Part shown: positions 14,970 to 57,861 of the stretch, piece by piece
How the letters are laid out: each line of letters starts with the position of its first letter
Numbering within the stretch: the stretch's first letter is position 1
Origin: an uncultured Acidobacteriota bacterium
GTDB lineage: Bacteria > Acidobacteriota > Thermoanaerobaculia > UBA5066 > Gp7-AA6
Reading direction: 5' to 3'
Assembly (NCBI GenBank): GCA_963815865.1
Contig: CAWFIK010000003.1
Coordinates: 159,127-223,126, forward strand
Length of the DNA stretch: 64,000 nt
The notes under the pieces: model-generated
Databases searched by the model: none
The model's input: only the letters and a program-made list of their open reading frames with translations
What the model was told of the DNA's origin: nothing
Translations under genes and position numbers: made by a program

Positions 14970-15123
14970 TGAGGTCCTTCAGGAAGACTTCCTTCCTCTT
15001 CAGGTCGTCACGAAACTCCATGCTGTCGGTATTGGCCACCTCCATCCGGAGGTCCGAGACGTATTCCGCCAGCACTTGCGCCAGGGTTTCCGCCTGTTCG
15101 GGGTTCAGAGTCAGTGTCGGCAC
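14932..15123 (-). CDS. small hypothetical protein
   Basis: 63-codon ORF, helical and charged (EQAETLAQVLAEYVSDLRMEVANTDSMEFRDDLKRKEVFLKDL). Converges on the previous gene. Confidence 0.4.
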   Translation of the reverse strand: MPTLTLNPEQAETLAQVLAEYVSDLRMEVANTDSMEFRDDLKRKEVFLKDLITQLGKTAPSAP

Positions 15124-15182
15124 GATGGCACCTCCGGGGAGAAGTCTCGCATGAGCGAAGGCGCGGGCGATAAGCTCTCCTC

Positions 15183-32471: not shown

Positions 32472-35400
32472 ATGAACAGGCGAATCACCTGGACTCTCTC
32501 CGCATTTGCCGTCTCGCTTCTGATCGCGGTCGTCGTGCCTTCGAGCCGTGCCCAGGTGGTTCGAATCTCGAAAGGCGCGCTCCTCCTTCCAAGGACGCTC
32601 TTGTCTTTGCCTCCGAGAGTTCTTGGCAGCGCTCTGCTCCGCTCGTCCGCGAAGGCTGCCGCGACAGAACAGGCAGGCAACGGCGTCATCACGGGCGCCT
32701 CGTACCACAACGACACCTCTCCGGCGCTGCGCGACATGGTGGCAGTTCCCATCGCGTCCCCGAAAGGAAAGAGTGAGCGCGAGGCGAACGAGAATCCGAA
32801 GATACCGATCGTCCACAAGAACAGCCCGGACGGATCGGTCGTCCAGAACCAGCACGTCTCCACGCCGAACATGCCCACCCCGATCCTGAATTTCGACGGC
32901 ATCCCGTTCCCCGGCGTGGTTTGCAATTGCGCGCCTCCCGACACCGACGGCGAGGTCGGCGCTGACGCAATACGTCCAGATCGTCAACGAGGGGTACCAG
33001 GTCTTCGACAAGACCACGCGGCGCGTCGGTCTTCGGGCCCGTGGCCATCTCGACGATCTGGACCGGATTCGGCGGCGTCTGCGAGACCAGCGGCTCGGGC
33101 GACCCGATCGTGCTCTACGACCAGATCGCCAATCGCTGGCTCGTCAGCCAGTTCGCCGGCACCTCGTTCATTACGGACGAGTGCATCGCCGTCTCCACAA
33201 CGGCCGACGCCACCGGCAGCTATAACCGCTACGGCTTTCATCTGGGCTCGACCACTTTCTTCGACTATCCCAAGATCTCCGTGTGGCCCGACGCCTACTA
33301 CATGAGCATGAACGTGTTCAACTCGCAGGGCACCGCGTTCCTGGGCCCGCAGCCGTTCGCATTCGACCGCGCGGCGATGCTGGCCGGGAGCGCGGCCACT
33401 TTCGTCAGCACCGGCATCACCGGCGGACCGGCGGAGGATGCGTATCTTCCCGCGGACCTGGACGGCTCGACTCTGCCGCCCGCGGGCGACCCCGGCGACG
33501 TTCGTGGAATTCCCGTCAACCAATACCTACAGGGTCTTCCACTTCCACGCCGACTTCGCCGTGCCTGCCAACTCGACGTTCACTCTCTTTGCCAGCCCGG
33601 CCGCCGCGCCCTTTACGCTGCTTTGTGAAACAACGCGGGCCTGCGTGCCCCAGTTGGGCTCAGCCGACGGCCTGGATGCCATCGCCGACCGGCTGATGTA
33701 CCGGCTCGCCTACCGCATCATCGGCGGGACGGAATCCGTCGTCGGCAACTTCACCGTCAGCTCCGGCGGCGTGGCCGGCATCCGCTGGTTCGAGCTGCGC
33801 AACGTGAGCGCCGGCCCGGTGACGGTCTTCCAGGAAAGCACCTATCAGCCGGATACCACCTGGCGCTGGATGGGCAGCGCGGCCATGGACAGGGACGGCG
33901 ACATGGCGCTCGGCTTCAGCGCCTCGAGCCCGACCATCTTTCCGCAGATCCGCTACGCGGGGCGCCTGGCGGGCGATCCATTCAACACGCTGGCGCAGGG
34001 GGAGGCCCACCTCTTCGACGGCACGGGAAGCCAGACCGACACCGTCAACCGCTGGGGCGACTACAGCGCCCTGACCATTGATCCGGTGGACGACTGCACG
34101 TTCTGGTACACGCAGGAGTACTACGCGACGACGGGCAGCTTCAACTGGCGCACGCGCATCGGCAACTTCAAGTTCCCATCGTGCAACAACCCGAATCCGT
34201 TCGTCACGATCGGCAAGACCGCCGACGCCGCGAGCGTTGTCGAAGGCTCCCAGGTCGGGTTCACGGTGACCCTGAACAACCTGGGCGGCAGCATGGCGAC
34301 CGGGCTGACATTCACCGACAATCTGCCGTCGGGCTCCGGGATCGACTGGGCAATCGACGCCGCCGGAACCGATTCCGGCTGGGCGGTGAGCGGCTCACCG
34401 CCTAGTCAGAGCCTCACCTACAGCCCCACGACCCTGGCGGCGACGACGAGCACGCACGCCCATGTCGTCAGCAGCACGACCACCGCCACGTGCGGCTCGA
34501 CTCTCAGCAACACGGCCTCATTCACGTCAGACAACGGCGGCTCCGGGAGCGCGTCGGCCTCGGTGGCTGTCGTGGGGCCGACCGTCACCCAGTTCAGCGA
34601 GAACTTCGACGGCGTGACGCCGCCCGCGCTGCCCGCGGATTGGACGGCGACGAATGCCGCCGGCCCGGCGCCGCTGTGGGTCACGTCCTCGACGAGCCCC
34701 GATACCGCGCCCAACGACGCCTTCGTGGATGATCCCGCCGTCGTCAGCGACAAGCGGCTGGATTCGCCAAGCATCGCCATTCCAACGGCGACTGCCAGGC
34801 TCACCTTCCGCAACAACTACAACCTGGAGAGCACGTTCGACGGCGGCGTGCTGGAGATCTCGATCGCGGGCGGAGCCTTTACGGACATCGTCACCGCGGG
34901 CGGCAGCTTCGTTACGGGCGGTTATAACGCGACGATTTCCACCTCCTTCGGCAGCCCCATCGCCGGTCGCCGGGCATGGAGCGGCAACTCTGGCGGTTAC
35001 GTCACGACGACTGTGAGCCTGCCCGCGGCCGCGGCCGGACAGAACATCCAACTGCGCTGGCGCATGGGCAGCGACAGCAGCGTGTCGGTCACCGGCTGGC
35101 GCATCGACACCATCTCGATCCAGGACAGTATTTGCGGCGGCAACACGCCGACACCGACGAACACGCCGACGGTGACCAATACGCCGACGAATACACCGAC
35201 GAACACGCCGACGGTCACCGGCACCCCGCCGACGGCAACCCCCACGCCCTGCCCGTTGACGTGGCAGATCGTTGCGCCGATGCCGGTGGATCTGTATGGC
35301 GCCGCTGGCGCTTCCGACGGCACCTTCTCCTACCACGCCGGCGGCTACTCCTTCAGCGCGGCCACCACTTTGAACGTTTTCAACCGTTACGATCCGGTGG

Positions 35401-37448
35401 CGAACTCCTGGACCGCGCGGGCGTCTCTGCCGGACGCGCTCAGCCTGGAGGCTTCCGCGGTTTACTACCCGACGACGAACAAGATTTACGTGTTCGGCGG
35501 TGAAGACGGCGACACAGGAGTCAATACCAACGCCACGAGGATCTTTGACATCGCTTCCAACACGTGGAGCGCGGGAGCGAACATGCCGGACGTGCGCAGC
35601 TTCATGGCCTCCGGCTATAACAGCGCCAACGGCAAGATCTATCTCGTCAGCGGCTACAACAATGGCCAGGTCGACAGCGCCCAGCCCGACACGTGGGAAT
35701 ACGACCCGGTGGCGAACACTTTCACGTCTCGCGCGGCGTTTCCGCATCCCGTAGGCGGCGCCGCGTACGGCATCATCAACGGCCATCTGTACGTGGCCGG
35801 CGGGCGCGATGCCGCCAATACGGTTGTTCAACTCGTCTGGGACTACAACATCGCGGCCAACACGTGGACGGCGAGGACCAGCATGCCGGGCACGGAAACC
35901 AACGTTCCCGGCAGCGCCGTGGCAAGCGGCAAACTGTTTGTTTTCGGGGGCGGGAATCCGTTTGGCCCCACGCAGGGTGCTTCGACCACGGCCGCGTTTG
36001 CGAGGATCAAGGTCAAGACTCCGGTTCCGGACACCACCAGCGCCGGGCTCGTCTACGACCCAGTCGCGGATAGCTGGTCAAGCGTTCCCAGCATGAACGT
36101 GAATCGGGCATTCACATCCGGCGCGACGATCGGCAGCAAGGTGGTTGCCGCCGGCGGCTACAACGGCGTGACCACCGTTGCGAGCGCGGAGGTGCTGAGC
36201 AGTCAGTGTCCTCCAACGCCGACGCCCACGCCGACGGCATGCCCGGGGCTCACCACGATCTTCAGCGAGAACTTCGACGGTGTGACGCCGCCGGCGCTGC
36301 CCGCGGGCTGGGTTGCCACCGTTCCGACCTGTGTCCCGGGAGGATGCGGCTGGGTGACCTCCAACTCGGGAACACCCACGCCGGTGGCCGACACGCTACC
36401 CAACGCCGCGTTTGCGCCCGACCTCAGCAATATCTCCGACCAGCGTCTCGATTCGCCGAGCATCGCGATCCAAACGGCCAGCGCGCAGTTGACCTTCCGC
36501 CAGAACCGCAACGTGGAGAGCACGTTCGACGGCGGCGTGCTGGAGATTTCAATCGGCGGCGGAGCGTTCACGGACATCCTCGCCGCGGGCGGCAGCTTCG
36601 TCACGGGCGGGTACAACGCGACGATCAGCAGCAGCTTCGGCAGCCCCATCGCCGGCCGTCAGGCGTGGAGCGGCACGACGTCGGGTGCCTTTGTCACGAC
36701 GACGGTGAACTTGCCCGCGTCCGCGGCCGGACAGAACATCGTTCTGCGCTGGCGCATGGCCAGCGACAACAGCGTCGGAGTTCAGGGCTGGCGCGTCGAT
36801 ACCATCGGCATCACCGATTGTGTCCCGCCGACGCCCACGCCGACGAACACGCCGACGCCGACGCCAACGAACACGCCAACGCCGACGCCGACCAACACGC
36901 CGACGAACACGCCAACCAATACTCCTGTTCCGCCGACCAACACGCCGACCAACACGCCGACGCCGATCCTGTCAACGTGCAAGCAGGAAGGTACCTGCCT
37001 CGTCTTTGAGTACCTGGGCTATGCGACGGACATCAGCGGACGGACGACCATCACCTTCCGCATTACCAATAAGTGCCAGAACAACACCGGCTACGTTGCG
37101 ATCGGCAGCAATGGCTTCACGCGCATCGCGCCCGCGAACGGCAGCGTCTATACCGGCAGCCTGGGCACCTACAATGTGACCTGGACCAATGCGAACGGGA
37201 ACCCGGGCTTCCCGGGCATCAAGTTCGACCGGGCCACAGGGAGCTACAACAGTTTCGCGTCGGACGTGTTCAGCATCGTGGTGACGAACTTCAATGCGAA
37301 CACCACGATCCCGGTGGCGGGGAAGTCCGGCAGCCACTCTCAGGAGACGTTCAACTTCCTGTTGAGTCAGACGACCTGCGTGGCGACGCCGACCAACACC
37401 CCGACGAGAACGCCGACGCCGACGCCGACCAGGACTCCCAGGAGGTAG
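32472..37448 (+). CDS. very large secreted multidomain protein (N-terminal catalytic-like domain, 2x ~180-aa jelly-roll-like modules, Kelch-repeat propeller, Pro/Thr linkers); three +1 frameshifts in the first 1.1 kb
   Basis: ggagg SD followed by ATG 32472 and a signal peptide. Pieces 32472-~32957, ~32958-33016, ~33018-33490 and 33490-37448 join seamlessly (…GEVGA|TQYVQIVNEGYQVFDKTT|GASVFGPVAISTIW…LPPAGD|PATFVEFPSTNTY…). Kelch-like IYVFGG, KIYLVSGY, HLYVAGG, KLFVFGG, KVVAAGG. Confidence 0.8.
34595..35126 (+). repeat. internal duplicated module 1 (SENFDGVTPPALPADW ... GWRIDTISIQD)
   Basis: Near-identical domain order and many identical peptides compared with 36264-36819 (DSPSIAI, ESTFDGGVLEISI.GGAFTDI..AGGSFVTGGYNATIS.SFGSPIAGR.AWSG, AAGQNI.LRWRM.SD). 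Confidence 0.9.
35144..35251 (+). repeat. coding tandem repeat, (ACN CCN)n Pro/Thr linker
   Basis: Encodes TPTPTNTPTVTNTPTNTPTNTPTVTGTPPTATPTP. Confidence 0.9.
36264..36819 (+). repeat. internal duplicated module 2 (SENFDGVTPPALPAGW ... GWRVDTIGITD)
   Basis: See module 1. Confidence 0.9.
36825..36967 (+). repeat. coding tandem repeat, Pro/Thr linker
   Basis: Encodes PPTPTPTNTPTPTPTNTPTPTPTNTPTNTPTNTPVPPTNTPTNTPTP. A third short copy lies at 37384-37440. Confidence 0.9.
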
Positions 37449-41073: not shown

Positions 41074-41581
41074 GGGGTGTGAGCTCTCAAACGCTGTTCC
41101 CACTCGAGGTTCTCGTCGTAGAGAATCCGCCCGGAGTCGCCGGCGTTGCCCTCTGCGGCACGCGGCGGCCGGGCCGCACGGAGAACCTCCTGGCCGCCGC
41201 TCCGGTCCGAGGGCACAGAGGCAGCTTCGCTAGGCCAGGTTCCCGGTGTGTGCCCTCGGACAGGGCCGCTGCCGGGCAACGTCGTCGCCTCCGGGCTGCA
41301 TAGTGTCTGTTCGAGCCGAGCTTTAGCCCCGGCGGCGGGACGCCTCCCGGAGGCGGCCGTAAGTGAAGGCGCGCCAGCCGGGATCCTCTGTTGCCTCGCT
41401 GCGACTGCGCCTTCGCGCTAGAGCGACGGCCGGTTCTCCAGAAACGGCCTGCCGGAGCGTGCCGCCGTAGGGAGGCAGCCCGACGCCGGGGCGGGTTGTC
41501 AGCGGAGGTCCCGGATACGCTGAGAGCCGCATTGGCGAGCAGCCCAAGGGTCGCCCCGACAGTACGGGGGAACGACGGGAC

Positions 41582-42583
<1,002 letters not shown>

Positions 42584-42587
<4 letters not shown>

Positions 42588-43612
42588 GCGACCTCCCGCG
42601 CTGTCTGATCCAGTTGCGCGAACCGCGTGATCAGCTCCACCGCGCGGTGCGCGTATCCGTAACCGGCGTCGTACCAGCAGAGAGTCTTGGAGACCCGCTC
42701 GCCCTGGACCATCGTCGCGAGCGAGTCGAACGTGCTCGAGTACGTGCTGTAGCTGACGTCGCTCGAGACGATCGGCTCGACCTCGTACTTCACGACGTTG
42801 CGCCAGCGATCCGTCGCGGCGGCCGTGCGGATGACCTCGTTGATCGCCGTCTGCGAGACCTTCTTCTCGTACCAGCAGACGAGGTCCACGACTGACCCGT
42901 TGCGCACCGGCACATTCATGGCGTAGCCGCTGACCCGCCCGGCGAGCTCCGGCAGCAGCTCCGCCACCATTTTCGGCGAACGGGACTCCTGCGGGATGAT
43001 GTTCTCGGCCGCCGCCCGGCCCCGGCGCATGTCTTCGGCCGGCACGTCCGCCAGCCGGTGCTGGCTCGTGTAGGAGTGGATCGTCGTGAAGATCGCGCGG
43101 CGGATGCCGAACGCCTCGTTCAGGATCTTCAGGATCGGCGTCACCGCGTGGACCGTCGAGGAAGCGTTCGACACGATCCGGTGGCGGCTCTCGAGCTTCT
43201 CGTCGTTGACGCCCATGACGGCCATGAAGTCGAACGCGTCGAGCGGGGGAGCGAGCGAGATCACGCGTTTCGCACCCGCCGCGAGGTGCTTCTCCAGGTC
43301 CGCGCGCGTGCGGCTCTTCGACGTCGCCTCGATGACCGTTTCCACGCCGAGGTCCCCCCAGGGCGGCTGCTGCACGTCCTTCTCCGAGATCATCGGGACC
43401 TGTCTTCCGACGACGTAGAGGTTGCCTTCCTTGATCGACACCTCGTCGGGGAACCTCCCGAGCACCGTGTCGAACTTCAGCAGGTACTCGAGCCCCTTGT
43501 GATCGGCGATCTCCGAGATCGCCGCGATCCGAATGTCCTCGCGCTTGTAGAGGATCCGGAAGATGTTCCTCCCGATCCTTCCCAGACCGACCAGCCCGAC
43601 TCGTGTGACCAC
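42584..43612 (-). CDS. GAPDH-like paralog lacking both active-site cysteines
   Basis: GTG start after aaggagg. GLVGLGRIGR Rossmann motif retained. The catalytic stretch reads SNASSTVHAVTP where gap has SNASCTTNCLAP. The stop overlaps the gap ATG (ATGA). Confidence 0.85.
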
Positions 43613-44773: not shown

Positions 44774-45124
44774 TCAAGGCACGCGGATGGGATCGATGTT
44801 CGTCCAGGGGTCGTTCGAGACCTGGATGTTAAACATGAGCGGCTGCGCGTTCGCGCGGGGATAGACGTAGAGCGTGAACTTGCCGGCCGGGATCTTGTAC
44901 AGGTAGTACATCCCATCCTGGCCCGAGTAAACCGTTCCCGACCAGCTGCCGGCCGTGCCCTGTCGGACGCGGACCGCGATGCCGCCGACGGAGTAGTCGC
45001 CCGATGGCCCCCGGCGCACGATCCGTCCGCGAACGTTGCCGGCATAGAGCGGCGCCGCGCCGGTGAGCCAGGACGCCGCCGCGACGGCGAGCACGAGAAA
45101 GAGCGCGTTCTTCCTGCGCGGCAT
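44774..45124 (-). CDS. small secreted carboxypeptidase-regulatory-like (Ig/transthyretin-fold) protein
   Basis: aggaggg SD followed by ATG 45124 and a signal peptide. GNVRGRIV...GIAVRV...SGQDGMYYLYKIPAGKFTLYV matches the CarboxypepD_reg pattern. Confidence 0.7.
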   Translation of the reverse strand: MPRRKNALFLVLAVAAASWLTGAAPLYAGNVRGRIVRRGPSGDYSVGGIAVRVRQGTAGSWSGTVYSGQDGMYYLYKIPAGKFTLYVYPRANAQPLMFNIQVSNDPWTNIDPIRVP

Positions 45125-45137
45125 CGTCAATCCCTCC

Positions 45138-46284: not shown

Positions 46285-48660
46285 CTATTTGAGGAAATCG
46301 CCGATCTGGTCGATGGTTTTCGACGGGACGAAGTCGGGCTTGAGGTAGAGGTTCGAGAGTTTGCCCGGATCCACGGGGGCGAGGTCCGCGGCCGGGATCT
46401 TCGTGTTGCCGTGCCCCTGCTTCCAGGCGCTCTCCCAGATCATCGCGAGGGTCTGGGCGCCGCGCGCCATCACGTCCACCGTCTTGTCGGCGAAGCTCGT
46501 CCAGAGGTCGGTCTTGTCGTTGAACGCTTTGATGATCGCCGCGGGCTTCAGGTCCCGGAAGGTCTGGTCCATGAGATTCACGATGGCCACGGCCGCGCCG
46601 TGGCCGCTCGCGACTGTCTTCGGCTTGCCGGGCGCGCCGGGCGGGAGCCTTGCGTTGAGCTTGTCGATCAGCTCGACAACGTGGGTGTTGAGCATCTTCG
46701 TCTCGTAGGCGCTGTGGACTCCGGCGGCGCGGGGGACCTGACGCGGCTGGCCGGCTTTGTCCGTGACGGTGACAGTGTCGGCCGGATCCCCGTCGAACAT
46801 GTAAGAGATGTGGAGCGGCTGGCAGGCGTCGCCGACGTAGTGCGAGAGGAGGCCGGCCGCGCAGAGGAAGGGGACGACGTCGCCGGCATCGAGCGCGGCG
46901 ACCATCGCGAGATAGATCTGCCAGACACGGAAGGGGAGGCACCCGCGGCTGCCGTCCTTGACGTCGTCGTAGTACGCGCGCCAGACGTCCACGTTGACCT
47001 TCGCGGAGTTGATCTTCCCGCCCGCGGCGCCGCCGCCTCCGCAGATCTGCAGCAGCGTCTTCCCCTTCGAGTCTTTCTTGTCCATGTCGGCGAAGTGGTT
47101 GGGGTGCTCGGGAGCGCCGCGCCTCCCGGCGCCGAACATCTTCCAGATCTTGTCGGGAACGTCGGCGAGCGGAACGAAGGCCGCCTTGCTCAACCCCTTG
47201 AAGGTCGAGGGGCGGAGGAGCGCCTCCTCGTAGGAGATCCGGTCGAGGTTCTTCGTCATGAGGGTTTTCAGGCCCGGCGCAGACACCTGGAGGCACGCGA
47301 GCGCGGCGATCGTATAGTGCCCGATGTCTCCCCAGTACTCCGGAAGCCCGGAATTCCAGTCGCGGACGAGGTCCACGTCGAGCTCCCGGCAGACGGTCGA
47401 GAGGCACGTCGCGAGCGCGTAGCTGTGTGCCGTCGTCTTCGTCATGCCCTCTTCGACGGCGACGTGCCCGCCCCACTGCAGCGCGAGCGGCCGCAGCGCC
47501 GGTTTTCGGGGCTTCGGCCTCTGTTTCGCGCCCGCCGGGTCGTCGGCCGGAGGCTGCTCGAGGCACCAGATCGTTCCCGAATCGCCCGGGAGCGTGCCGG
47601 GGCTTCCGCCGCCCGGGAAGACCGGGGCGCACTTCTCGACGTCCGGCCCGGCGTTCCTCATGTGGCGGCATTGGACCCTCGGCCCGATCAGGAGATCGGC
47701 CACATAGTCGATGCCGCCGACCGATTTGTATCGATAGAAGAGGGCGTCGATCTGTCCCAGGAGCGGTCCGGACGCTCCGCCGAACGCGCACACGGGACAT
47801 CCGATCAAGTCGAGCGTGATCGTGTCGGTCGTCAGGTCCGCGGGGCGGTCGAGACTCCCGAGGCCCACGACCTGCGTCGTCCATTGTGAGACGTCGTCCA
47901 CGCGGACGAGCCCGGCGTCGAGGTTGGAGAGGACGTGCGTGCCGGGCCACCCATCGTAGGCATCGGCAAAGGGCTTCTTGGCGATCTGCTTCCGGTCGCT
48001 GACGCCGATGCGGACCTTCGTCTCGCCGAACACGGAGTAGATCTCGCGCCCTTCTTCTCCCGTGACGTGGCGATTGGTCAGCGCGTAGATCTGGTTTCCG
48101 TCGGTGACGAGAGAGCCGACGGAGCCCAAGTGCTCGCGCCCCTGGACGTCGCTCGCGAGGAGATAGCCCCCTCCGATGAGGCTCTTCGGGAACGACAGCT
48201 TCCGCGCGCTGTCGAGAGGCGCGTCCTCTTCCGTCACCTGAATCACGCAGGTCGGAATGACACGGCCGTCGGAAAGGTAGAGCGCGCGCGGGACCATCTG
48301 ATCGGGCTCGAAGAGGCCCGAATGCCGCCCCTTCTTTTGTCCCTTCTTCGACCCGAACTGCTCACGATGGATCCAGTCGTTGACGAAGACGAGCACGGAC
48401 GGCCACGACCAGGGGAGGACCCGCGAGTTCTCGAGCGTCCGCGGAAACGCCGGCGGCCTGAAGTCGTCGGGCTGCTTGACGTTGGGAGGATGCGTCTCGA
48501 ACCAGTCCCCGCACCGGATCCGGTACCGCCCGATCGCCGTCGCGATCACGTTGGCCAGGTGAGCCAGGTGGACGTGGTAAGCGTCTCGAGCCTCGAGCAG
48601 GTCCTTCACGGAGAGCGAGCTGTAATCCCGCTTCGGCGGAAACTGAGTCAGAGCGTCCAC
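46285..48660 (-). CDS. fusion protein: chymotrypsin-fold serine protease domain + zinc-dependent phospholipase C / S1-P1 nuclease superfamily domain
   Basis: No signal peptide. Protease triad contexts are ALTNRHV (His198), LDAGLVRV (Asp), and TLPGDSGTIW (Ser361). The C-terminal half has WGDIGHYTIAALA (Trp443; compare P1 WGALGH), HPNHFADMD, HYVGDACQPLH, and GVHSAYE (compare PLC HSKYE). Confidence 0.8.
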   Translation of the reverse strand: MDALTQFPPKRDYSSLSVKDLLEARDAYHVHLAHLANVIATAIGRYRIRCGDWFETHPPNVKQPDDFRPPAFPRTLENSRVLPWSWPSVLVFVNDWIHREQFGSKKGQKKGRHSGLFEPDQMVPRALYLSDGRVIPTCVIQVTEEDAPLDSARKLSFPKSLIGGGYLLASDVQGREHLGSVGSLVTDGNQIYALTNRHVTGEEGREIYSVFGETKVRIGVSDRKQIAKKPFADAYDGWPGTHVLSNLDAGLVRVDDVSQWTTQVVGLGSLDRPADLTTDTITLDLIGCPVCAFGGASGPLLGQIDALFYRYKSVGGIDYVADLLIGPRVQCRHMRNAGPDVEKCAPVFPGGGSPGTLPGDSGTIWCLEQPPADDPAGAKQRPKPRKPALRPLALQWGGHVAVEEGMTKTTAHSYALATCLSTVCRELDVDLVRDWNSGLPEYWGDIGHYTIAALACLQVSAPGLKTLMTKNLDRISYEEALLRPSTFKGLSKAAFVPLADVPDKIWKMFGAGRRGAPEHPNHFADMDKKDSKGKTLLQICGGGGAAGGKINSAKVNVDVWRAYYDDVKDGSRGCLPFRVWQIYLAMVAALDAGDVVPFLCAAGLLSHYVGDACQPLHISYMFDGDPADTVTVTDKAGQPRQVPRAAGVHSAYETKMLNTHVVELIDKLNARLPPGAPGKPKTVASGHGAAVAIVNLMDQTFRDLKPAAIIKAFNDKTDLWTSFADKTVDVMARGAQTLAMIWESAWKQGHGNTKIPAADLAPVDPGKLSNLYLKPDFVPSKTIDQIGDFLK

Positions 48661-48784
48661 GCGCCCTCCCGGTAAGAGAAAGAGACTACAGGAATCCCGC
48701 GTGCAGGTGGCGCGGAGTCCTTACCCCCGGAACAAATCTCCCTCTCCTCAGGTAGGATCGTCCACACCTCACGAGGAGGCAAAG

Positions 48785-49708: not shown

Positions 49709-51442
49709 ATGGCGAAGTCAAAGAGCCGCAAGATCGTCCCCGGGTCCGACAAGAAGGCCCTGCCGAAGGCGAAGGTGATCGGCAAGCCCGATCCGGAAGA
49801 GCGGATCGAGGTCACAGTCCTGTTACGGCGCCGCGCCGCGGGCGCGAGTCCGCGCGCACGCAAGGCCGCGGCCGCGAAGGCCATGACCGCAGCCGCCAAA
49901 TTGCCGGAGCAGCGTGTCTACCTGAGCCGAGAGGCCTTCGCCGAGCAAGCCGGCGCCAACCCCGCGGACGTGGCGAAGGTCGAAGCGTTCGCTCAAGAGC
50001 ACAACCTCACAGTCGTCGAGGCGAGCCTCTCGAAGCGCAGCGTCCGGCTGGCCGGCACGATCGCCGATCTCGGGAAGGCGTTCGGAGTCAGCCTGAGGAA
50101 CTCCAGGCTCGGCAGCCGCGTCTTCCGGTCGCGGACCGGCGCCATCTCCGTGCCCGCGCAATTGCACGGCATCGTCGTCGGCGTCTTCGGCCTCGACGAC
50201 CGTCCCGCGGCCAGGCCGCACTACCGGCTGAGAGAAGAGAAGACGGGTAATCCGCGCCGCAAGGCGTCACTGCGGGCGGCCCGGGGCGCACAGTCGCCGG
50301 GCGGCATCAAAGCCACGAGCCACAACGCCGCCGACGGCAGCTTCACGCCTCCTCAGGTGGCCAAGCTCTACAACTTTCCCGCCGGCCTCGACGGAACGGG
50401 GCAGTGCATCGCCATCGTCGAGCTGAACGATTTCAACAGGCAGGGCAAGATCACCGGGACGGGCTTCAGCCTGACCGACCTCAAGGCCTATTTCACGTCG
50501 CTCGGCATAACTCCGCCTTCTGTCACAGCGGTGAGCGTCGATGGCGGCGCCAACATGCCCGGCCCCGACGCCAACGCGGACGGCGAGGTCATGCTGGACA
50601 TCGAGGTCGCCGGCGCCGTGGCCCCAAAGGCGAGCATCGCGGTGTATTTCGCTCCGAACACCGACCGCGGCTTCCTCGACGCCGTCAACGCCGCCCTGCA
50701 CGATACGGTGCGCAAACCGTCGGTCGTCTCAATTAGCTGGGGCTCGGCCGAGGAAGCAAACACTCAACAGGCTTTGACCGCCTTCGATCAAATCCTGCAG
50801 GACGCCTCAACTCTGGGAGTGACTGTGTGCGCCTCGGCCGGTGATGACGGTTCCTCGGACATGCCGCAAGGAAACGGAGACGGCCGGCCGCATGTGGATT
50901 TCCCGGCGTCGAGTTCCTTCGCGCTGGGCTGCGGCGGCACAAGGTTGCTCGGCTCCGGAACGACCGTCTCGAGCGAGGTCGTCTGGAACCAGGGAAACGG
51001 CGCGACCGGCGGCGGAGTAAGCAATTCCTTCGCCCGCCCCGCCTACCAGTCCAAGTCCAAGGTCCCCAAGTCCCCCACCGGCAAAGTCGGCCGCGGCGTC
51101 CCAGACATCGCCGGCGACGCCGACCCCGGCACCGGCTACCAGGTCCGGCTCGTCGGCGGCAAGAAGGCCGTCATCGGCGGCACGAGCGCCGTTTCCCCTC
51201 TCTGGGCCGGCCTCGTCGCCCGGATCAACCAGCGCCTCACGAAGCTGAAGAAACCTCCGGCCGGTTTTCTGAACGCCTTGCTCTACAACTTTCCGAAGAT
51301 CGCCGCGGCCTTCCGCGACATAACGAAGGGAACCAACGACATAGACAACCTCGGCAAATACAAAGCCGCCGCCGGCTGGGACCCCTGCACCGGCCTCGGC
51401 ACCCCCAACGGAGCGAATCTCCTGAAAGCCCTCGGCGGCTAA
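49709..51442 (+). CDS. S53 family peptidase (sedolisin/kumamolisin-like) with pro-domain
   Basis: N-terminal activation-domain-like region (RIEVTVLLRRR). Catalytic-domain motifs EVMLDIEVAGAVAP, SWG, ASAGDDGS, and nucleophile GGTSAVSPLWAGL. Confidence 0.85.
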   Translation: MAKSKSRKIVPGSDKKALPKAKVIGKPDPEERIEVTVLLRRRAAGASPRARKAAAAKAMTAAAKLPEQRVYLSREAFAEQAGANPADVAKVEAFAQEHNLTVVEASLSKRSVRLAGTIADLGKAFGVSLRNSRLGSRVFRSRTGAISVPAQLHGIVVGVFGLDDRPAARPHYRLREEKTGNPRRKASLRAARGAQSPGGIKATSHNAADGSFTPPQVAKLYNFPAGLDGTGQCIAIVELNDFNRQGKITGTGFSLTDLKAYFTSLGITPPSVTAVSVDGGANMPGPDANADGEVMLDIEVAGAVAPKASIAVYFAPNTDRGFLDAVNAALHDTVRKPSVVSISWGSAEEANTQQALTAFDQILQDASTLGVTVCASAGDDGSSDMPQGNGDGRPHVDFPASSSFALGCGGTRLLGSGTTVSSEVVWNQGNGATGGGVSNSFARPAYQSKSKVPKSPTGKVGRGVPDIAGDADPGTGYQVRLVGGKKAVIGGTSAVSPLWAGLVARINQRLTKLKKPPAGFLNALLYNFPKIAAAFRDITKGTNDIDNLGKYKAAAGWDPCTGLGTPNGANLLKALGG

Positions 51443-51513
51443 CCCCCTCTCCGCCGGCACCACCAATCTCTGAACTGGTTCTGTTAATGTCCCGCGCAGG
51501 GCGGGAGGGTTCC

Positions 51514-54417
51514 ATGCTGATTCGCCGGGCCGGACTATTGGCTGGATTGGCCGCGCTCGCGACAATCCTCGACGGATGCGCCACGATGGTCGAGATCTCT
51601 CCGCCGAGGGTCCCGCAGGGCGGCCGCGCCCTGTCCATTTCGGTCGCCTCGACGGACGCGCGGAGGATGGCCGTCGCGACCGAGACGGGCGGGCTCTTTC
51701 GGACCTTCGACGGCGGCCAGAGCTGGCAGCACCTCGACGGGCTCCCCAACTACATGACGAGGGACGTCGCGATTGCGTCGCTCGATCCGAACACGATCAT
51801 CGCGACGGCGCTGCCGCAGTTCCGGACGGTCAACGACGGCGGAATCTGGCGGAGCACCGACGGCGGCGGCTCGTGGAGCCAGCCTCCCGGCTGGACGCCG
51901 CCGCCCGGCCCGGCCTGTACGGCGCGCCCCGGCGCGTGGGGAATCTCCCACATGCCGCTCTCCCGCACGTTCTATGTCGGGACGGACTGCGGTGTGGCGA
52001 TCAGCAACGACAACGGCGCGTCGTGGACCCACATCTTCCTCGATCCCAACGCGGCGGGCGATGAGTTCCGGCACCGCGTCCGCGGCATCCTGGTGATCAA
52101 CCGCACCTCCGGCGTCGCCGCCGCGGACTCGGGCCTCTTCCATATCGGTCCCGACGGGGCGTGGGTACAGGGACCGAGCGTCGATACATCGGGCCAGGTG
52201 CCGGTGACCCACGCCTTCGCGGCGCCGTGGTGGCTCGGCGTCTCGTCGGTCTTCTTTCACGCGAGCGGCGGGCAGAAGCTCTGGCTCTCCACCGACAGTG
52301 GAGCGACCTGGACCCAGGTCCCGGCGCCGAGCATCAACAACCGGGAAGGGTTCGTCCGCGCCTCGCGCTCGCTCTCGGGCGACGACCGGGAGTTCGAGGT
52401 CTATTACGGCGACGGCGCGCACTTCAATCGCCAGACGTTTTCCATGCCGGGACCGGCCGGCTCCGGCAACTGGACCAAGCTCCAGTCCGATCACGACGAT
52501 CCTTCCGACGTCGCCTTCGACCTCGACATCCGCGTCCCGACGCTGCTCGCTTCCGACGGCGGCGTCCACCGGACGACCGACCAGGGAGCGAGCTGGAAGC
52601 TGACCGGCGGCGGCTTCGGAGGGTTCGACGCCCTGCAGATTGCCGAGATCACAGGCGCGGTCTTCTCCGGACCTCCGGAGCACCAGGACCTCTACTACGC
52701 AACGCAGGACAACGACCTGAAGGCGTCGGGCGACGGCGGCGCGACCTGGACCGGATCGCTCTGCTGCGAGGGGCGGTTCCTGCGGATCTCCTCCGGGAGC
52801 ATCGACTTCAAGCCCAAGGTCACCGGCTCCGACTGCGGCCCGTGCTCGAGTTTCATCTCGGACCGCCTCTACGCAAACTCGAGGCCGTGGCCCAGCGCGC
52901 CGGACGGAAACCCGGCGAACGTCGCCGATACGCCGTTCCTGGTCGCCGGTGACACGTACCTCCAGGACGCCCGCAACAACGGCACTTCGCCGCCGACCTT
53001 CGATTTCTTCTTTACCTCAACCGCCGGCATTTCGTGGTCGAAGTCCTTCTCGCTGCAGTTGACGCCGATCGGCGCGTCTGTGTTCGCCGGCCCGCCGGAC
53101 AACCCGACGCTCTACCAGGGAGTCCAGCTGCCTGGCTCGCTTCCCGGCGGTGCCCCGATGTTCGGAGTGTTCAAGGCCACCGGCCTCTCCTCCTCGGGCC
53201 CTGCCACGGTGACCCGGCTCGATCCGGCGGTGACCCTGGCCTTCGGCCTGCACCACACGCCGATCGCGCGCTACCTGGTCTTCGGCGCGGACCCGGGCAA
53301 CCCCGCCCACCTGATCCTTGCCGATGTCTTAAACGGCGAGATGAAGTTCTCCGCCGACGGCGGAGCGACGTTCCACTCCTACTCGCAGCTCACGCAGGCC
53401 GTGACCTCGGGCGGGCAGTACCTCTTCCATGTCGGCGAGCTCTCGGTAGCGACCGTGGTCAACTGGGATCCCAACGACTCCTGCCACATCCTCGTCGGCA
53501 CGACCCAGAACGGCGTGCTTCGCTCGACCGACGGCGGCAACACGTGGACGCAGATCCAGGGCTCGAAGGCGATCACGTACGTCAGCTCCTTTTATTTCCC
53601 TCCCTCCGGCTATGTCTGGGTCTCGACCAACGGCCGGGGCCTCTGGCGGCTGAAGTTGAACCGCCCGGCGGGAGGCAGCGGGGCGCGCTGCCGCTTCCCC
53701 GGCGGGACTCCCGGCGGAGCCGCCGGCGGCGTGATCGTCGCCATCGATCCCTCGACCGGCTCGAGCAGCTCCTTCAAGGGCCTGGACGATCCCGCCGTCT
53801 GCGCGGACTGTTCGGTCGTGGTCGTCCGCAACGGCTGGATCACGGGATTGGAGCTGTCCGGAGGCAGCGTCCGTGAGCTCGCGATCTCCGGCGGAACGGT
53901 CTCTCAGCTCGACCGCAACGGCCGCGAGATCCCGCTCGCCGTCCCGAACGTCTACCGCCCGGGCGACGGCAAGCTCGAGGGCCGCATTCCCGCCCGCGCC
54001 CTCGCCGGTCCGCAGCGGATCCGCGCCCTCGTGCTCGCGGGAACGAGCGTCAAGCTCGCGATCGCCTCCGACGGAAACCTCCCCTTCGCCCCCGCCCGAA
54101 CGCCAATAGTCTTCGCGACCTCCGCGATCCGCCCCGGCGCCTCCTCCATCAGCCCCAACGAGCCGGTCCGGGTCGAAGGAGCCTACTTCGTCCCGCCGTC
54201 CGCCGGCGGAGAGCCCGTCCGCATCCTCCTCGACGGCAAGCCCGCCGCCAAGACAGCCCCGGTCGAGGAAGACGGCTCCTTCACGATCGACCTCCCCGTC
54301 ACCCAGCTCCCCGGCACTCTCCAGATCACCGCCGAGCAGAACGACGGCCGCCGCCTGACCCGCGAAATAACCACCATCGACATCACTCACTCCGAACCTC
54401 CCGCCAACCCCCGCTGA
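51514..54417 (+). CDS. BNR/Asp-box repeat lipoprotein (sialidase-/Ycf48-like beta-propellers)
   Basis: gggaggg SD followed by ATG 51514 and lipobox ATILDGC. Asp-boxes: RTFDGGQSW, RSTDGGGSW, SNDNGASW, STDSGATW, RTTDQGASW, SGDGGATW, SADGGATF, RSTDGGNTW. Confidence 0.8.
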   Translation: MLIRRAGLLAGLAALATILDGCATMVEISPPRVPQGGRALSISVASTDARRMAVATETGGLFRTFDGGQSWQHLDGLPNYMTRDVAIASLDPNTIIATALPQFRTVNDGGIWRSTDGGGSWSQPPGWTPPPGPACTARPGAWGISHMPLSRTFYVGTDCGVAISNDNGASWTHIFLDPNAAGDEFRHRVRGILVINRTSGVAAADSGLFHIGPDGAWVQGPSVDTSGQVPVTHAFAAPWWLGVSSVFFHASGGQKLWLSTDSGATWTQVPAPSINNREGFVRASRSLSGDDREFEVYYGDGAHFNRQTFSMPGPAGSGNWTKLQSDHDDPSDVAFDLDIRVPTLLASDGGVHRTTDQGASWKLTGGGFGGFDALQIAEITGAVFSGPPEHQDLYYATQDNDLKASGDGGATWTGSLCCEGRFLRISSGSIDFKPKVTGSDCGPCSSFISDRLYANSRPWPSAPDGNPANVADTPFLVAGDTYLQDARNNGTSPPTFDFFFTSTAGISWSKSFSLQLTPIGASVFAGPPDNPTLYQGVQLPGSLPGGAPMFGVFKATGLSSSGPATVTRLDPAVTLAFGLHHTPIARYLVFGADPGNPAHLILADVLNGEMKFSADGGATFHSYSQLTQAVTSGGQYLFHVGELSVATVVNWDPNDSCHILVGTTQNGVLRSTDGGNTWTQIQGSKAITYVSSFYFPPSGYVWVSTNGRGLWRLKLNRPAGGSGARCRFPGGTPGGAAGGVIVAIDPSTGSSSSFKGLDDPAVCADCSVVVVRNGWITGLELSGGSVRELAISGGTVSQLDRNGREIPLAVPNVYRPGDGKLEGRIPARALAGPQRIRALVLAGTSVKLAIASDGNLPFAPARTPIVFATSAIRPGASSISPNEPVRVEGAYFVPPSAGGEPVRILLDGKPAAKTAPVEEDGSFTIDLPVTQLPGTLQITAEQNDGRRLTREITTIDITHSEPPANPR

Positions 54418-54731: not shown

Positions 54732-55751
54732 ATGCTCGGCAGTTCCCGCGCCTGGTTTGTGGATCGATACGGCGGGCCCGAACGCTTTGTTTTGCGGGAG
54801 AGGTCCGATCACGTTCCCGGACCCGGCCAGGTTCTCGTCAGGACTTCGGCGATCGGGCTGAACTTCGCCGATCTCTTCGTCCGGGCGGGCGTGTATCCGC
54901 GGACGCCGAAGCCGCCGTTTGTTCCGGGCATGGAGATTTCGGGGACGATCGAGAGCGTTGGGGAGGGGATCTCGGATCTCCGCCCCGGCCAGCGAGTCGT
55001 CGCAGTGCCGCTCTTTGGCGGTCATGCCGAGGAGGTCGTGGTGCCGGCGGCCTGGGTCTTTCCGCTTCCCGACGGAGTGGATCTCGTCGAGGCGGCGGCG
55101 ATTCCTGTTGTCTTTCTGACGGCGTGGTATGCGCTGGCTCGCGCGGAGGTTGGTTCGGGGGATCGCGTCGTTGTCACGGCGGCGGCCGGTGGCGTCGGGA
55201 CCGCGCTTCTGCAGATGATTTCACTGCGCGGGGCGAAGGCGATCGGTCTCGTCGGCTCGGAATCGAAGATCGACGTCTGCCGAAAGCTTGACGCGCAGGA
55301 TGCCGGGCTCTACGAATCCGCGGGAGAACTCATTGACCGCCACTTCCACGGCCGCGCCGACGTCGTCGTGGACGCGATCGGCGGAAGAGTCTTCCGGGCT
55401 CTCTGGCGCCGCCTGGATCGCGGCGGGCGCTATGTTCTGTATGGCTTCGCGGCTGCCGCCGGGCCCGGCGGCGTCGCGCGCGTGAAGGCTGCCCGCGAGC
55501 TTATCGCCATGGGGCTCCTTGCCCCTTACCGATTCGTCCAGAGCTGCCGCACTCTCATCGGATTCAACCTGTCATTGCTTCCGGCGAAGACCGGCGAGCT
55601 GCGCCGCGCCGCCGAAGGGATCTTCGACCTCTGGAAGTCCGGGCGGATCCGCCCGATCCTCGGTCCGCGCTTCGACTTCGCCGACCTCCCGCGAGCCCAC
55701 GAGGCACTCGCCAGTCGCTCGACCATCGGGAAGGTGCTCATCAGCGTCTGA
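54732..55751 (+). CDS. NADPH:quinone oxidoreductase / zinc-type alcohol dehydrogenase-like (MDR family)
   Basis: VLVRTSAIGLNFADLFVRAGVYP, PGMEISG, Rossmann AAAGGVGTALLQM, and C-terminal GKVLI. Confidence 0.85.
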   Translation: MLGSSRAWFVDRYGGPERFVLRERSDHVPGPGQVLVRTSAIGLNFADLFVRAGVYPRTPKPPFVPGMEISGTIESVGEGISDLRPGQRVVAVPLFGGHAEEVVVPAAWVFPLPDGVDLVEAAAIPVVFLTAWYALARAEVGSGDRVVVTAAAGGVGTALLQMISLRGAKAIGLVGSESKIDVCRKLDAQDAGLYESAGELIDRHFHGRADVVVDAIGGRVFRALWRRLDRGGRYVLYGFAAAAGPGGVARVKAARELIAMGLLAPYRFVQSCRTLIGFNLSLLPAKTGELRRAAEGIFDLWKSGRIRPILGPRFDFADLPRAHEALASRSTIGKVLISV

Positions 55752-55757
55752 GGAGGG

Positions 55758-55790
55758 CAGATTCTTCGTCGCTGCGCTCCTCAGAATGAC
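55758..55790. repeat. R1 repeat, single arm (reverse orientation)
   Basis: gcagattcttcgtcgctgcgctcctcagaatgac. A short gtcattctg remnant follows at 55807. Confidence 0.75.
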
Positions 55791-55851
55791 ATTGGGAAGG
55801 AATTGCGTCATTCTGGTGCGGAAAATGACTGAAGCGGTGAAGGGGTTGGCC

Positions 55852-57861
55852 ATGCGGAGACGGGTCCTCGTCATCTGGGTCCTGGTGGCTTGTTGTGCGG
55901 GCGCGGTCCGCGCGCAATTCGACGAGGAGAAGCATGTTCGGGAGTTCGCGAAGAGGCTCGCGAAGGATCGGGACGCGCAGGAGAGGGCTTCGGCAGCGCG
56001 GTGGTTGGGGGGGAGGAAGAATCCGGAGGCGGTGGCGGCTCTGGCGAAGGCGTTGTCGGATCCGGACGCGTCGGTGAGGGAGGCGGCGGCTTCAGCGCTC
56101 TGGAGCACCGGGAAGGACGCGGTCGCGGCGAAGCCGGAGCTGACGAAGGCGCTCGCCGATCCGGATGCGGCGGTCATCGCGCGGGCGGCGGGGGCGCTGG
56201 CCGTGATGGACGTGCCGGACTCGGAGCTGGCGGAGGCGTGGCGGCAGGCGCTCGAGGGAGCGCGCGATGACGCGACGGCGTTTCTCGCGGCGCGCGGGTT
56301 GATCGGGATGGAGCGGGCGGAGAAGCTCGCGCCGCCGATCCTGACCTACCTGGCGAAGAGAGCGGAGGCGGCCGCGCGGCCGGCGCCGGGGCGGTCCATC
56401 TGGAACGACCGGGACAGCGCGGAGAACGCGGAGAAGGCGCTCAGCCATCTCCTCGCGAAGGACGCGGCGCCGGTCCTGCCGCTGCTCGACCGCACGGTGG
56501 CGCAGTCGCCGAACTCCGGGCGGTATGTCCTCGGCGCGCTCGCCTCGGTCAAGACTCTTCCGAAGGGAACGGTGGACCTCGCGCTCGCGCACACGCGCTC
56601 TTCTGTGGCGGAGACTCGGAACGCGGCGATCACGCTGGCGGGAAAGGTGACGAGCGAGCGCGAAGCGGCGCGTTGGATCCCGGAGGCGATCCGCCTGCTG
56701 GGCGATCCGGACGAGGGCGTTCGCATCGAGGCGTGCTGGGCGCTGAAGGGGGTCAAGGGACTGGCGCACGAGGCCGCGCCGGAGCTGGCACGGCTCCTTT
56801 CGAGCGACTCTCCTTCGAGGGTGCGGCACAGCGCCGCGGGCGCGCTCGAGGAGATCGGGAACGTCTCGAATCCAGTCCCGAAGTCGGCGAAGGCCGCCGT
56901 CGCCACCGCCGCGAAGGACGCGCTCGCGCGCGCGATGAAGGACAAGGACCACGACGTCGCGGAAGACGCGGTCGCCGCATACAACGTGCTCTACATCGAC
57001 AACGCTGAGATCGTGGCGGCACTGGCCGACGTCGCCGTCAACGGGGCCGACACGGGCGCGCGGCAGCGGGCGCTCCAGTGCCTGCGGAACCGCCAGGGAC
57101 AGGCGAAGGGCGTCGTCGAGACGATCCGTCCCCTGACGCGAGCCTCCGACAAGTACGTTGCGGACGGCGCGAAGACCGCGATCGAGTGGATCGGGCGCGG
57201 CGGCTCGGGTAGTCCCGGCGCGATCAGGACTGGCGGCGCCGCCTCTTCCGTCGCGCCCCCGGCAGCCGCGGCGGCGGCGCGCTCCGACTCGGCGCCGCGT
57301 GCCGGCTCCGCGCCTCCCGCCGGCGAGCAGCGCGGCCTCGCCGTCCTGCGCGAGCGCAACCTCGAGTTCAACGAGCCGAGCTTCTACCGCGCGTTGTCGG
57401 AAGCCGACACCGAGGCCGTACGCGCCTATCTCGACGGCGGAATGTCCGCCAAACACGTCTTCGTGGACTCGAACCGCCGCTCGCCGCTGATGGTCCTGTT
57501 CTTCGGCAGACAGGCCTGCGCGAATCCGGAGACGGGCCGCGTGCTCGTCAAGCTCCTCCTCGATCGCGGCGCCGACGTGAACCAGCAGGACGAGAAGAAG
57601 AACACCGCGCTGATGTTCGCCGCGGATACCTGCGACCGTCAGACGCTGCGCCTGCTGCTCAAGGCGGGCGCGAAGGTCAATGCGCGCAACTGGGCGAACC
57701 TGACGGCGCTCGAGATGGGAATCGTCTCCGGCAATCCCGGCCTCGAGGAGCTGATCGAAGCCGGCGCCCGCCTCGACGCCGCGAAGGCGAAGGCCTACGC
57801 CGAGGCCTACAAGAAGAACCCCAAAGCGCTCGCCCTCATCAAGAAGGCCTCGGCGACCTAA
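55852..57861 (+). CDS. secreted HEAT-repeat protein with C-terminal ankyrin repeats
   Basis: Signal peptide VLVIWVLVACCAGAVRA. Multiple HEAT/PBS-lyase-like units (ALAKALSDPDASVREAAASAL, LTKALADPDAAVIARAAGAL, ...). C-terminal ANK units (LLLDRGADVNQQDEKKNTALMFAA, LLLKAGAKVNARNWANLTALEM). Confidence 0.8.
   Translation: MRRRVLVIWVLVACCAGAVRAQFDEEKHVREFAKRLAKDRDAQERASAARWLGGRKNPEAVAALAKALSDPDASVREAAASALWSTGKDAVAAKPELTKALADPDAAVIARAAGALAVMDVPDSELAEAWRQALEGARDDATAFLAARGLIGMERAEKLAPPILTYLAKRAEAAARPAPGRSIWNDRDSAENAEKALSHLLAKDAAPVLPLLDRTVAQSPNSGRYVLGALASVKTLPKGTVDLALAHTRSSVAETRNAAITLAGKVTSEREAARWIPEAIRLLGDPDEGVRIEACWALKGVKGLAHEAAPELARLLSSDSPSRVRHSAAGALEEIGNVSNPVPKSAKAAVATAAKDALARAMKDKDHDVAEDAVAAYNVLYIDNAEIVAALADVAVNGADTGARQRALQCLRNRQGQAKGVVETIRPLTRASDKYVADGAKTAIEWIGRGGSGSPGAIRTGGAASSVAPPAAAAAARSDSAPRAGSAPPAGEQRGLAVLRERNLEFNEPSFYRALSEADTEAVRAYLDGGMSAKHVFVDSNRRSPLMVLFFGRQACANPETGRVLVKLLLDRGADVNQQDEKKNTALMFAADTCDRQTLRLLLKAGAKVNARNWANLTALEMGIVSGNPGLEELIEAGARLDAAKAKAYAEAYKKNPKALALIKKASAT

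Follow-up and report, generated by a model that had tools for sequence, protein, structure and literature searches.

Within a 64,000-nucleotide stretch of contig CAWFIK010000003.1 (GenBank assembly GCA_963815865.1, positions 159,127 to 223,126; hereafter the window), which comes from an uncultured Acidobacteriota bacterium, a reverse-strand gene encodes a 791-amino-acid (aa) protein that joins two enzymes in a single chain: a serine protease of the type found in rice NAL1, and a zinc enzyme of the superfamily that comprises the zinc phospholipases C (PLCs) and the S1/P1 nucleases. Both folds are present with their catalytic residues intact. The tryptophan that is residue 1 of the mature chain in all solved relatives of the zinc enzyme, as placed by profile alignment, is internal here (W443); it follows the protease after a tether of fixed length, and the residue just before it, which would be position P1 of a cleavage site (not to be confused with nuclease P1), co-evolves with the S1 pocket of the protease. 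This comparative evidence points to a cut made by the protease in its own chain, directly N-terminal to W443. We infer the cleavage, activation by cleavage and the substrate, and we consider it probable that the gene product is a self-processing zymogen, i.e. a cytosolic single chain made of a 442-residue NAL1-type protease part and a 349-residue three-zinc phosphodiesterase. In the proposed mechanism, the 15-residue tether would bring residue 442 into the S1 pocket of its own protease, either in cis, within the same chain, or in trans, on a neighbouring chain of a NAL1-like oligomer; S361 would then cut between Y442 and W443, and the freed alpha-amine of W443 would complete the third zinc site and turn the phosphodiesterase active.

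In every characterised enzyme of the superfamily, one zinc is bound by the N-terminal tryptophan through its free alpha-amino group and its carbonyl. Methionine aminopeptidase does not remove methionine before bulky residues such as tryptophan; a cytosolic N-terminal tryptophan is therefore unobtainable from translation, which leaves endoproteolysis as the sole route. The characterised PLC/P1 enzymes, those whose solved structures were matched here, are secreted or extracellular, and their N-terminal tryptophan ligand is a product of secretion. Listeria PC-PLC is an inactive proenzyme with a 26-residue propeptide (PMC10576769), and one extra residue before W1 abolishes its activity according to the passage of that paper that cites Slepkov et al. 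2010. By analogy with this precedent, as it is reported in that passage, the C-terminal enzyme with its internal tryptophan should be latent, as the original prediction had proposed.

The tether and the S1 pocket

Conservation was assessed in 357 non-identical full-length homologs, all of which carry W443. The catalytic triad and the nine zinc ligands hardly vary: one sequence departs at D248, one at D611, and six have aspartate in place of E653; both enzymes are therefore under selection to remain active. Exactly 15 residues lead from L427, in the C-terminal helix of the protease, to W443 in 351 of the 357 homologs, and this tether is as conserved as the folded domains. The loop that follows S361, unlike the tether, spans from 16 to 61 residues among homologs.

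The residue before the tryptophan had been reported as tyrosine. This holds for the window protein (Y442) but not for the whole family, in which Y or F occurs in 240 of the 357 sequences and S, T, V, I or R in the other 117. Its identity goes with that of residue 398, which directly follows the invariant W396-G397. Where residue 442 is Y or F, residue 398 is glycine (229 sequences) or alanine (11) and never larger; where it is S, T, V, I or R, residue 398 is Q in 87 sequences, K in 6, R in 6, M in 4, E in 3, S in 4, A in 3 and G in 4. Serine or threonine at 442 is mostly accompanied by Q, K or R at 398, and arginine at 442 by S398; two independent lineages with arginine at P1 both carry S398 together with E400. 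Column 398 shows the highest mutual information with column 442 in both data sets. The aromatic residue at 442 was lost six times in neighbour-joining trees. A test by closest-pair contrasts was uninformative, the pairs being too divergent, and a lineage test on conserved columns was used in its place. Among 124 columns at least 93% conserved in sequences with an aromatic P1, residue 398 is the sole column altered in five of the six non-aromatic lineages; T356 comes second, altered in three of the six, and 98 of the 124 columns are never altered.

Residue 398 is placed on the strand that, as residues 214-217 of the chymotrypsin fold, forms a wall of the S1 pocket. T356 lies five residues before S361 and is thus taken as the equivalent of residue 190, a classical S1 position. 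A residue 442 lodged in the S1 pocket of its own protease would be expected to covary in this way: a glycine wall would suit an aromatic P1, and a filled pocket would suit a small one.

Several points weigh against self-processing at this site. The matching of residue 398 to chymotrypsin 216/217 and of residue 356 to chymotrypsin 190 comes from motif offsets. The covariation stems from about six independent events and is imperfect, since one lineage with threonine at P1 keeps G398. In a sample of 80 sequences, Y442 also covaries with Y449, which belongs to the opening helix of the C-terminal domain (the Y442/Y449 pair changes to T/F), and this could reflect static packing in place of docking in the pocket; in larger sets this pair was not the leading signal and counts as a caveat only. 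In the AlphaFold2 (AF2) model, the predicted local distance difference test (pLDDT) drops below 50 at residues 439-443 between two confident flanks, with no confident placement of the junction; low confidence in the model would be compatible with a segment that changes state. Lastly, the protease may have external substrates, by analogy with NAL1, which itself cleaves other proteins (FZP).

The two catalytic domains

Modelled alone, residues 443-791 gave a pLDDT of 90.8 and a predicted TM-score (pTM) of 0.92. The best 30 matches of this model in the PDB, obtained with Foldseek, are exclusively S1/P1 nucleases (SmNuc1, S1, AtBFN2, TBN1) and zinc PLCs (B. cereus, Listeria and clostridial alpha-toxins), and SmNuc1, S1 and AtBFN2 lead the list with probability 1.0 and TM(target) of 0.54-0.62. 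A profile of the C-terminal domain found AtENDO2 (E 1.3e-4). In the profile alignment, WGxxGH stands opposite residue 1 of mature AtENDO2, SmNuc1 and S1 nuclease, and HYVGDACQPLH...H..YE opposite HFMGDIHQPLH...H..WD of the nucleases. With Pfam, the window protein alone remained under the gathering cut-offs for S1-P1_nuclease (PF02265; E 1.5e-3, 18.9 bits against 29.5) and Zn_dep_PLPC (PF00882; E 0.011, 16.2 bits against 26.8), whereas in a scan of 19 C-terminal domains of the family at E up to 0.1, all 19 matched S1-P1_nuclease (best E 1.9e-9) and 18 matched Zn_dep_PLPC (best E 1.2e-5). The same scan gave no match to the Het-C profile and one other match, due to chance. Where Pfam scores of the window protein alone were weak, profiles and structure decided the matter.

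The earlier assignment to the PLC/P1-nuclease group stands at the level of the superfamily fold, the sequence being slightly nearer to the S1/P1 nucleases than to the PLCs. Its features are mixed: the spacing from tryptophan to histidine is nuclease-like, and the final glutamate ligand and the HFxDxD motif are PLC-like. The protein does not qualify as a plain member of the secreted S1/P1 or PLC families, given that the tryptophan is not N-terminal, that a signal peptide is absent and that the scores are below threshold; its C-terminal domain is better regarded as a branch of its own within the superfamily. All motifs and residue numbers quoted earlier were found in place by codon mapping: TNRH198V, LD248AGL and GDS361GT for the triad, and W443GDIGH448, H522FADMD, H607YVGD611ACQPLH617 and H649SAYE653 for zinc, with GLPEY442 directly before W443. 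The ninth zinc ligand, D503 (in ADVPD), had been overlooked and is the equivalent of Asp45 of nuclease P1 and Asp55 of PLC.

The full-length AF2 model had a mean pLDDT of 86.9 and a pTM of only 0.58. In it, residues 1-440 resemble rice NAL1 (Foldseek E 4e-20, TM(target) 0.7-0.8, approximately 440 aligned columns), the alignment covering residues 36-458 of the NAL1 constructs; alpha-lytic protease and streptogrisin-type proteases come next in the ranking. The family profile matched NAL1 chains (E 4.7e-16) in an alignment that begins with W86 opposite NAL1 I129 and ends at the C-terminal helix of the protease, with the 'IIWGG' of NAL1 opposite 'LQWGG' of the 791-aa protein. For Pfam Nal1_C (PF25819), the window protein alone scored under the cut-off of 26.1 (E 2.6e-3, 17.4 bits), and most homologs carry a precomputed PF25819 match. 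NAL1 has three domains (N-terminal, ATP-binding and protease) and assembles into a hexameric cage (PMC12012508). Since the Foldseek and profile matches to NAL1 include the N-terminal region, the segment of about 160 residues that had been put forward as a sensor is part of one NAL1-like module with the protease. No sensor domain beyond this module was recognised in the 791-aa protein with Pfam or Foldseek. The ATP contacts of NAL1, K139 and Q149, align to W96 and a methionine of the window protein; ATP binding is thus not evidently retained, and the idea that the N-terminal region senses ATP was dropped.

The gene starts with GTG, a position that coincides with the start point of homologs, and its G+C content at third codon positions (GC3) is 0.88, as is usual for real genes in this window of 66% GC. 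It appears to be monocistronic, with its own Shine-Dalgarno-like sequence, a divergent gene upstream, a 421-nt gap downstream and a promoter-like site before the next gene. No signal peptide was evident in the 791-aa protein, the maximum of the Kyte-Doolittle index (19-residue span) within residues 1-60 being 0.81, and the chain opens with a polar helix that is conserved. The earlier description of a two-enzyme fusion located in the cytosol was confirmed; the conservation of triad and ligands and the matches to NAL1 and to the S1/P1 nucleases and zinc PLCs lie well above what chance would give.

Family distribution and genomic context

A word-indexed search retrieved more than 1,700 relatives, the best 120 being full length and 45-86% identical to the window protein, and an exhaustive search of representatives at 50% identity gave 1,272 clusters at E<=1e-3 and 300 at E<=1e-30. 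When one representative genome per species was scanned (185,579 in all), 375 relatives were found. Carriers belong to Acidobacteriota, Rokubacteria, Alpha-, Beta- and Gammaproteobacteria, Myxococcota, Chloroflexota (Ktedonobacter), Planctomycetota, Bacteroidota, Verrucomicrobiota, Gemmatimonadota and others, and the nearest relatives, 78-86% identical, are encoded in Acidobacteriota metagenome-assembled genomes (MAGs). One fusion architecture prevails throughout more than 1,200 protein clusters. A profile search seeded with the most divergent clade returned this architecture alone, in proteins of 718-825 aa chiefly from Bacteroidota, and disposed of reverse transcriptase fusions and other architectures; shorter entries were rejected as alternative architectures, as they begin mid-domain and are fragments at contig ends. 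In public databases the proteins are named 'hypothetical protein', 'S1/P1 Nuclease' or 'Nal1-like putative serine protease', and no description of a protease-PLC/P1 fusion was found in the literature on 'Nal1-like' proteins and self-processing P1-type enzymes. Two copies, 86% and 85% identical to the window protein, are present in one Acidobacteriota MAG (MFD02199.bin.2.50; loci L007 and L030). A 414-aa fragment of a family member lies three genes upstream of the main copy in locus L004, and the copy of Ktedonobacter racemifer (L061, 10001-13380; 3.4 kb) appears interrupted.

The window is ordinary Acidobacteriota chromosome, with no compositional anomaly. No mobile or defence genes were found in it by Pfam on the neighbours and PADLOC on those tested. 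It encodes two GAPDH paralogs, a PGM1-like ATP-grasp protein, an S53 peptidase, a BNR/sortilin protein, a gamma-glutamyltranspeptidase, an amidase, a beta-lactamase-fold protein, an MFS transporter, and Kelch and HEAT/ankyrin proteins (Table 1). A gene similar to that of the HEAT and ankyrin repeat protein lies near the ortholog of 80% identity in locus L001, marking a conserved neighbourhood. The two small genes downstream of the fusion gene gave no Pfam or PADLOC match and are common to the locus of that 80% ortholog only; the promoter-like site before the 241-aa gene suggests that its true start is an internal ATG.

Table 1. Positions in the window of the fusion gene, its functional residues and neighbouring features
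Feature	Position	Strand	Basis
Full gene, 791-aa NAL1-like protease + PLC/P1-superfamily zinc phosphodiesterase	46285-48660	-	Open reading frame, GC3, homologs, codon map
Stop codon	46285-46287	-	
Shine-Dalgarno-like GGGAGGG, 3-4 nt 5' of the GTG start	48664-48670	-	Sequence reading
N-terminal region like the N-terminal/ATP-binding-domain part of NAL1, residues 1-160	48181-48660	-	Foldseek, profile alignment
Chymotrypsin-fold serine protease domain (NAL1_C type), residues 161-427	47380-48180	-	Pfam, Foldseek, profile
Triad H198	48067-48069	-	Invariant or nearly so in 357 homologs
Triad D248	47917-47919	-	Invariant or nearly so in 357 homologs
Triad S361	47578-47580	-	Invariant or nearly so in 357 homologs
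W396-G397-G398, S1-pocket wall strand (chymotrypsin 214-217 equivalents)	47467-47475	-	Covariation, NAL1 alignment
Conserved tether DVDLVRDWNSGLPEY, residues 428-442, ending in predicted P1 Y442	47335-47379	-	Length and conservation
Predicted scissile bond, Y442-W443	47332-47337	-	W443 invariance, alignment to mature residue 1, P1/S1 covariation
PLC/P1-nuclease-fold trinuclear-zinc phosphodiesterase domain, residues 443-791; helical C-terminal extension ~690-791	46288-47334	-	Model, profiles
Zinc ligand W443	47332-47334	-	
Zinc ligand H448	47317-47319	-	
Zinc ligand D503	47152-47154	-	
Zinc ligand H522	47095-47097	-	
Zinc ligand H607	46840-46842	-	
Zinc ligand D611	46828-46830	-	
Zinc ligand H617	46810-46812	-	
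Zinc ligand H649	46714-46716	-	
Zinc ligand E653	46702-46704	-	
1336-aa protein: DUF11, InhA-like MAM domain, Kelch beta-propeller	33438-37448	+	
GAPDH paralog (Gp_dh_N, Gp_dh_C), overlapping the next in tandem	41499-42587	-	
GAPDH paralog (Gp_dh_N, Gp_dh_C)	42584-43612	-	
118-aa protein, signal-peptide-like start	44774-45130	-	
241-aa protein, membrane-like segment	45138-45863	-	
Promoter-like site before the 241-aa gene	45883-45855		
Sedolisin/kumamolisin-type S53 peptidase with pro-kumamolisin activation domain	49709-51442	+	
976-aa Sortilin/BNR-repeat protein, after the S53 peptidase gene	51487-54417	+	
HEAT + ankyrin repeat protein	55519-57861	+	

Genomic context bears on what a cut would be for. 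The reading that fares best among the rivals, a real possibility although short of an even one, is a single constitutive cut during or just after folding, which would yield a cytosolic phosphodiesterase or nuclease with an ordinary physiological task, for instance in the turnover of nucleic acids, nucleotides or lipids, in the response to starvation or in development, regulation lying elsewhere. It agrees with the absence of mobile and defence genes and of compositional anomaly from the window, with the lack of a sensor beyond the NAL1 module, and with the fixed tether, which suits single-turnover cutting in cis. The GAPDH pair is syntenic with the fusion gene in related Acidobacteriota MAGs (L001 and L005-L007; 78-86% identity), and this suggests stable vertical inheritance. 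Pfam assigned mainly metabolic and housekeeping families, varying by locus, to 103 genes at positions ±1 and ±2 of 40 diverse loci, which make up the first half of the neighbour set; three Bacteroidota loci were likewise ordinary. All-against-all clustering of neighbours found no conserved operon partner in 82 loci, where synteny is lineage-local only, and the existence of such a partner was ruled out on these grounds. Against a constitutive cut, an unregulated S1/P1- or PLC-type enzyme should harm the cytosol; the patchy spread over many phyla speaks for an accessory gene that moves horizontally; some copies adjoin TIR, CARF, PDC-S51, dGTPase, toxin-antitoxin or transposon genes; and a matching PADLOC model exists.

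A conflict role is conceivable yet doubtful: the patchy distribution, the occasionally mobile context and the hazard of an unregulated cytosolic nuclease or lipase leave room for it, and the general context stands against it. The protein would then be a one-gene effector of anti-phage defence, abortive infection or another conflict, in which a trigger would lead to oligomerisation or a conformational change of the NAL1 module, then to self-cleavage and release of an indiscriminate nuclease or lipase. The matching model, PDLC03017 'trypsin-like' of PADLOC-DB v2, hits the 791-aa protein at E 3e-32 overall (2.4e-13 and 1.3e-17 for the halves), and both halves match collinearly, residues 36-438 to model positions 23-305 and residues 572-788 to 435-609, of a model that is shorter, with 611 positions; the homolog of locus L003 matches it too. 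No defence system behind PDLC03017 was identified in the papers on UG/Abi, retron classification, PADLOC-embedded systems, nuclease-protease systems and the type XI retron, which counts against this reading; its accession lies about 80 past those of the retron accessory models PRTase_III-A (02931-02935), only a hint that it originated in a retron set. Effectors unlocked by proteases, such as trypsin-MBL, Pepco and EACC1, are an established defence logic (PMC12799240, PMC12642450), Het-C, a related domain, is known from toxins (PMC3482391), and one genome carries two copies of the family.

Some copies do lie in defence or mobile regions. That of Mesorhizobium (L002) adjoins a serine recombinase and a 714-aa protein (13025-15169, reverse strand) with an N-terminal TIR domain and a C-terminal match to PADLOC LmuA, RTasMBL and Avs1a, which, from these matches, is likely a defence protein itself. 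Another copy, present on 55 contigs, has an IS91 transposase on one side and PDC-S51, PRTase and CARF genes on the other, and one carried by a conjugative plasmid of Sphingobium is surrounded by ParDE, an anti-phage dGTPase and a Tn7-like element; the multi-contig homolog P0042 had no match in E. coli genomes. By contrast, the 103 neighbours showed no enrichment in defence or mobile genes by Pfam or PADLOC: two or three matches were specific to defence, including PDC-S51 and a DRT reverse transcriptase, the rest being generic helicase, AAA and phospholipase models. The Acidobacteriota and Bacteroidota loci were ordinary, no recognisable sensor was present, and there were matches in 0 of 50,697 phage records and in five plasmid or chromid records. 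Neighbourhood analysis therefore did not bear out the defence or abortive-infection setting suggested in the original prediction, and membership of the known protease-gated defence systems fails, as there is no sensor, partner or island.

It is improbable that no cleavage takes place at all, the internal tryptophan being tolerated or the zinc site remodelled in a two-enzyme fusion, or in a NAL1-like caged protease acting on other proteins with the C-terminal domain as a substrate-binding or regulatory module: NAL1 does degrade other proteins within its hexameric cage (PMC12012508), docking of the junction is not confident in the AF2 model and the Y442/Y449 covariation hints that residue 442 packs on the C-terminal domain, but residue 442 co-evolves specifically with S1-pocket positions, the tryptophan and all ligands are strictly conserved, tether length is invariant and, in the reported Listeria case, an N-terminal extension of W1 inactivates PC-PLC (PMC10576769).

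Novelty and comparison with known systems

Each of the folds, and the principle of an effector that stays latent until a dedicated protease cuts it (Listeria PC-PLC with Mpl, trypsin-MBL, Pepco, EACC1, gasdermin), are established. What is new is, first, that one cytosolic polypeptide combines a NAL1-type protease with a PLC/P1-type enzyme; second, that proteolysis is predicted to yield an N-terminus that serves as metal ligand; third, the S1/P1 co-evolution within the chain, which would mark a cleavage site; and fourth, the link to plant NAL1. Fusion to a protease that creates the N-terminus would be a possible way to bring PLC/P1 chemistry into the cytosol. The co-evolution predicts both the cleavage site and natural specificity pairs, namely Y442/G398, S/T442/Q398 and R442/S398. 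The family is large and uncharacterised, with more than 1,200 clusters at 50% identity in soil Acidobacteriota, Bacteroidota, Proteobacteria, Myxococcota, Chloroflexota and others, and if cleavage is triggered, no known protease-gated effector would be as compact, protease and effector being parts of a single chain. The family also gives NAL1, a protease of agronomic importance, relatives among bacteria and possibly an ancestral function. Since the homology covers the protease and the region N-terminal to it (window 47380-48660, reverse strand), the plant yield gene NAL1 may descend from the activating half of a bacterial zymogen. In its boldest form, which we regard as rather unlikely, the protein would be a cytosolic generator of N-terminal tryptophan whose S1 pocket co-evolved with the tether for one precise cut, gated as a one-gene suicide or defence switch, and plant NAL1 would have been recruited from its activating half.

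Among known enzymes, the S1/P1 nucleases (1AK0, 5FB9, 3W52, 8QJL; PF02265) share with the C-terminal domain the all-alpha fold, the WGxxGH start with histidine at Trp+5, the HxxGDxxQPLH and H-x3-acid motifs and eight of the nine ligands. They differ in that their tryptophan is residue 1 of a secreted mature chain, whereas here it is residue 443 of a protein devoid of signal peptide; their last ligand is aspartate, not glutamate (Glu653), and they do not have the helical C-terminal extension of about 100 aa. The zinc PLCs (1AH7, 1CA1, 8CQM) have in common with it the fold, the last glutamate ligand (HSAYE), the HFxDxD motif and the proenzyme principle. By contrast, their histidine ligand lies 10-13 residues past W1, compared with 5 past W443, and they are secreted with a short propeptide that a separate protease removes, in place of a fused cytosolic protease part of 442 aa.

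Rice NAL1 (8PMG, 8HAU, 7Y77; PF25819) is alike over about 440 residues, including the region before the protease, the order of the triad and the W-G-G strand. Unlike the window protein, it has no PLC/P1 domain after the protease, and its own activity is the cleavage of FZP (at H117 and H195) and other proteins inside the hexameric cage. The alphavirus capsid protease has a chymotrypsin fold and cuts at its own C-terminus in cis. Its scissile bond, with an aromatic P1, lies a short fixed distance past the fold, as does the one predicted here, and by analogy this position would allow single-turnover cutting in cis; the likeness is one of topology, and the partner released by the capsid protease is a polyprotein, not an enzyme that needs a new N-terminus as metal ligand.

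The protease-activated defence effectors, i.e. the MBL pro-nuclease cut by a trypsin-like protease in Hachiman, AVAST and Lamassu, Pepco, EACC1 and the gasdermins, resemble the proposed zymogen in that a latent death effector is unlocked by the site-specific cut of a dedicated protease. Those systems are multi-gene, their protease is fused to a sensor (STAND, HamA, LmuA), and their effector is made as a protein of its own with a different fold. In the fusion, by contrast, protease and putative effector form one chain, which has no recognisable sensor and no consistent defence context.

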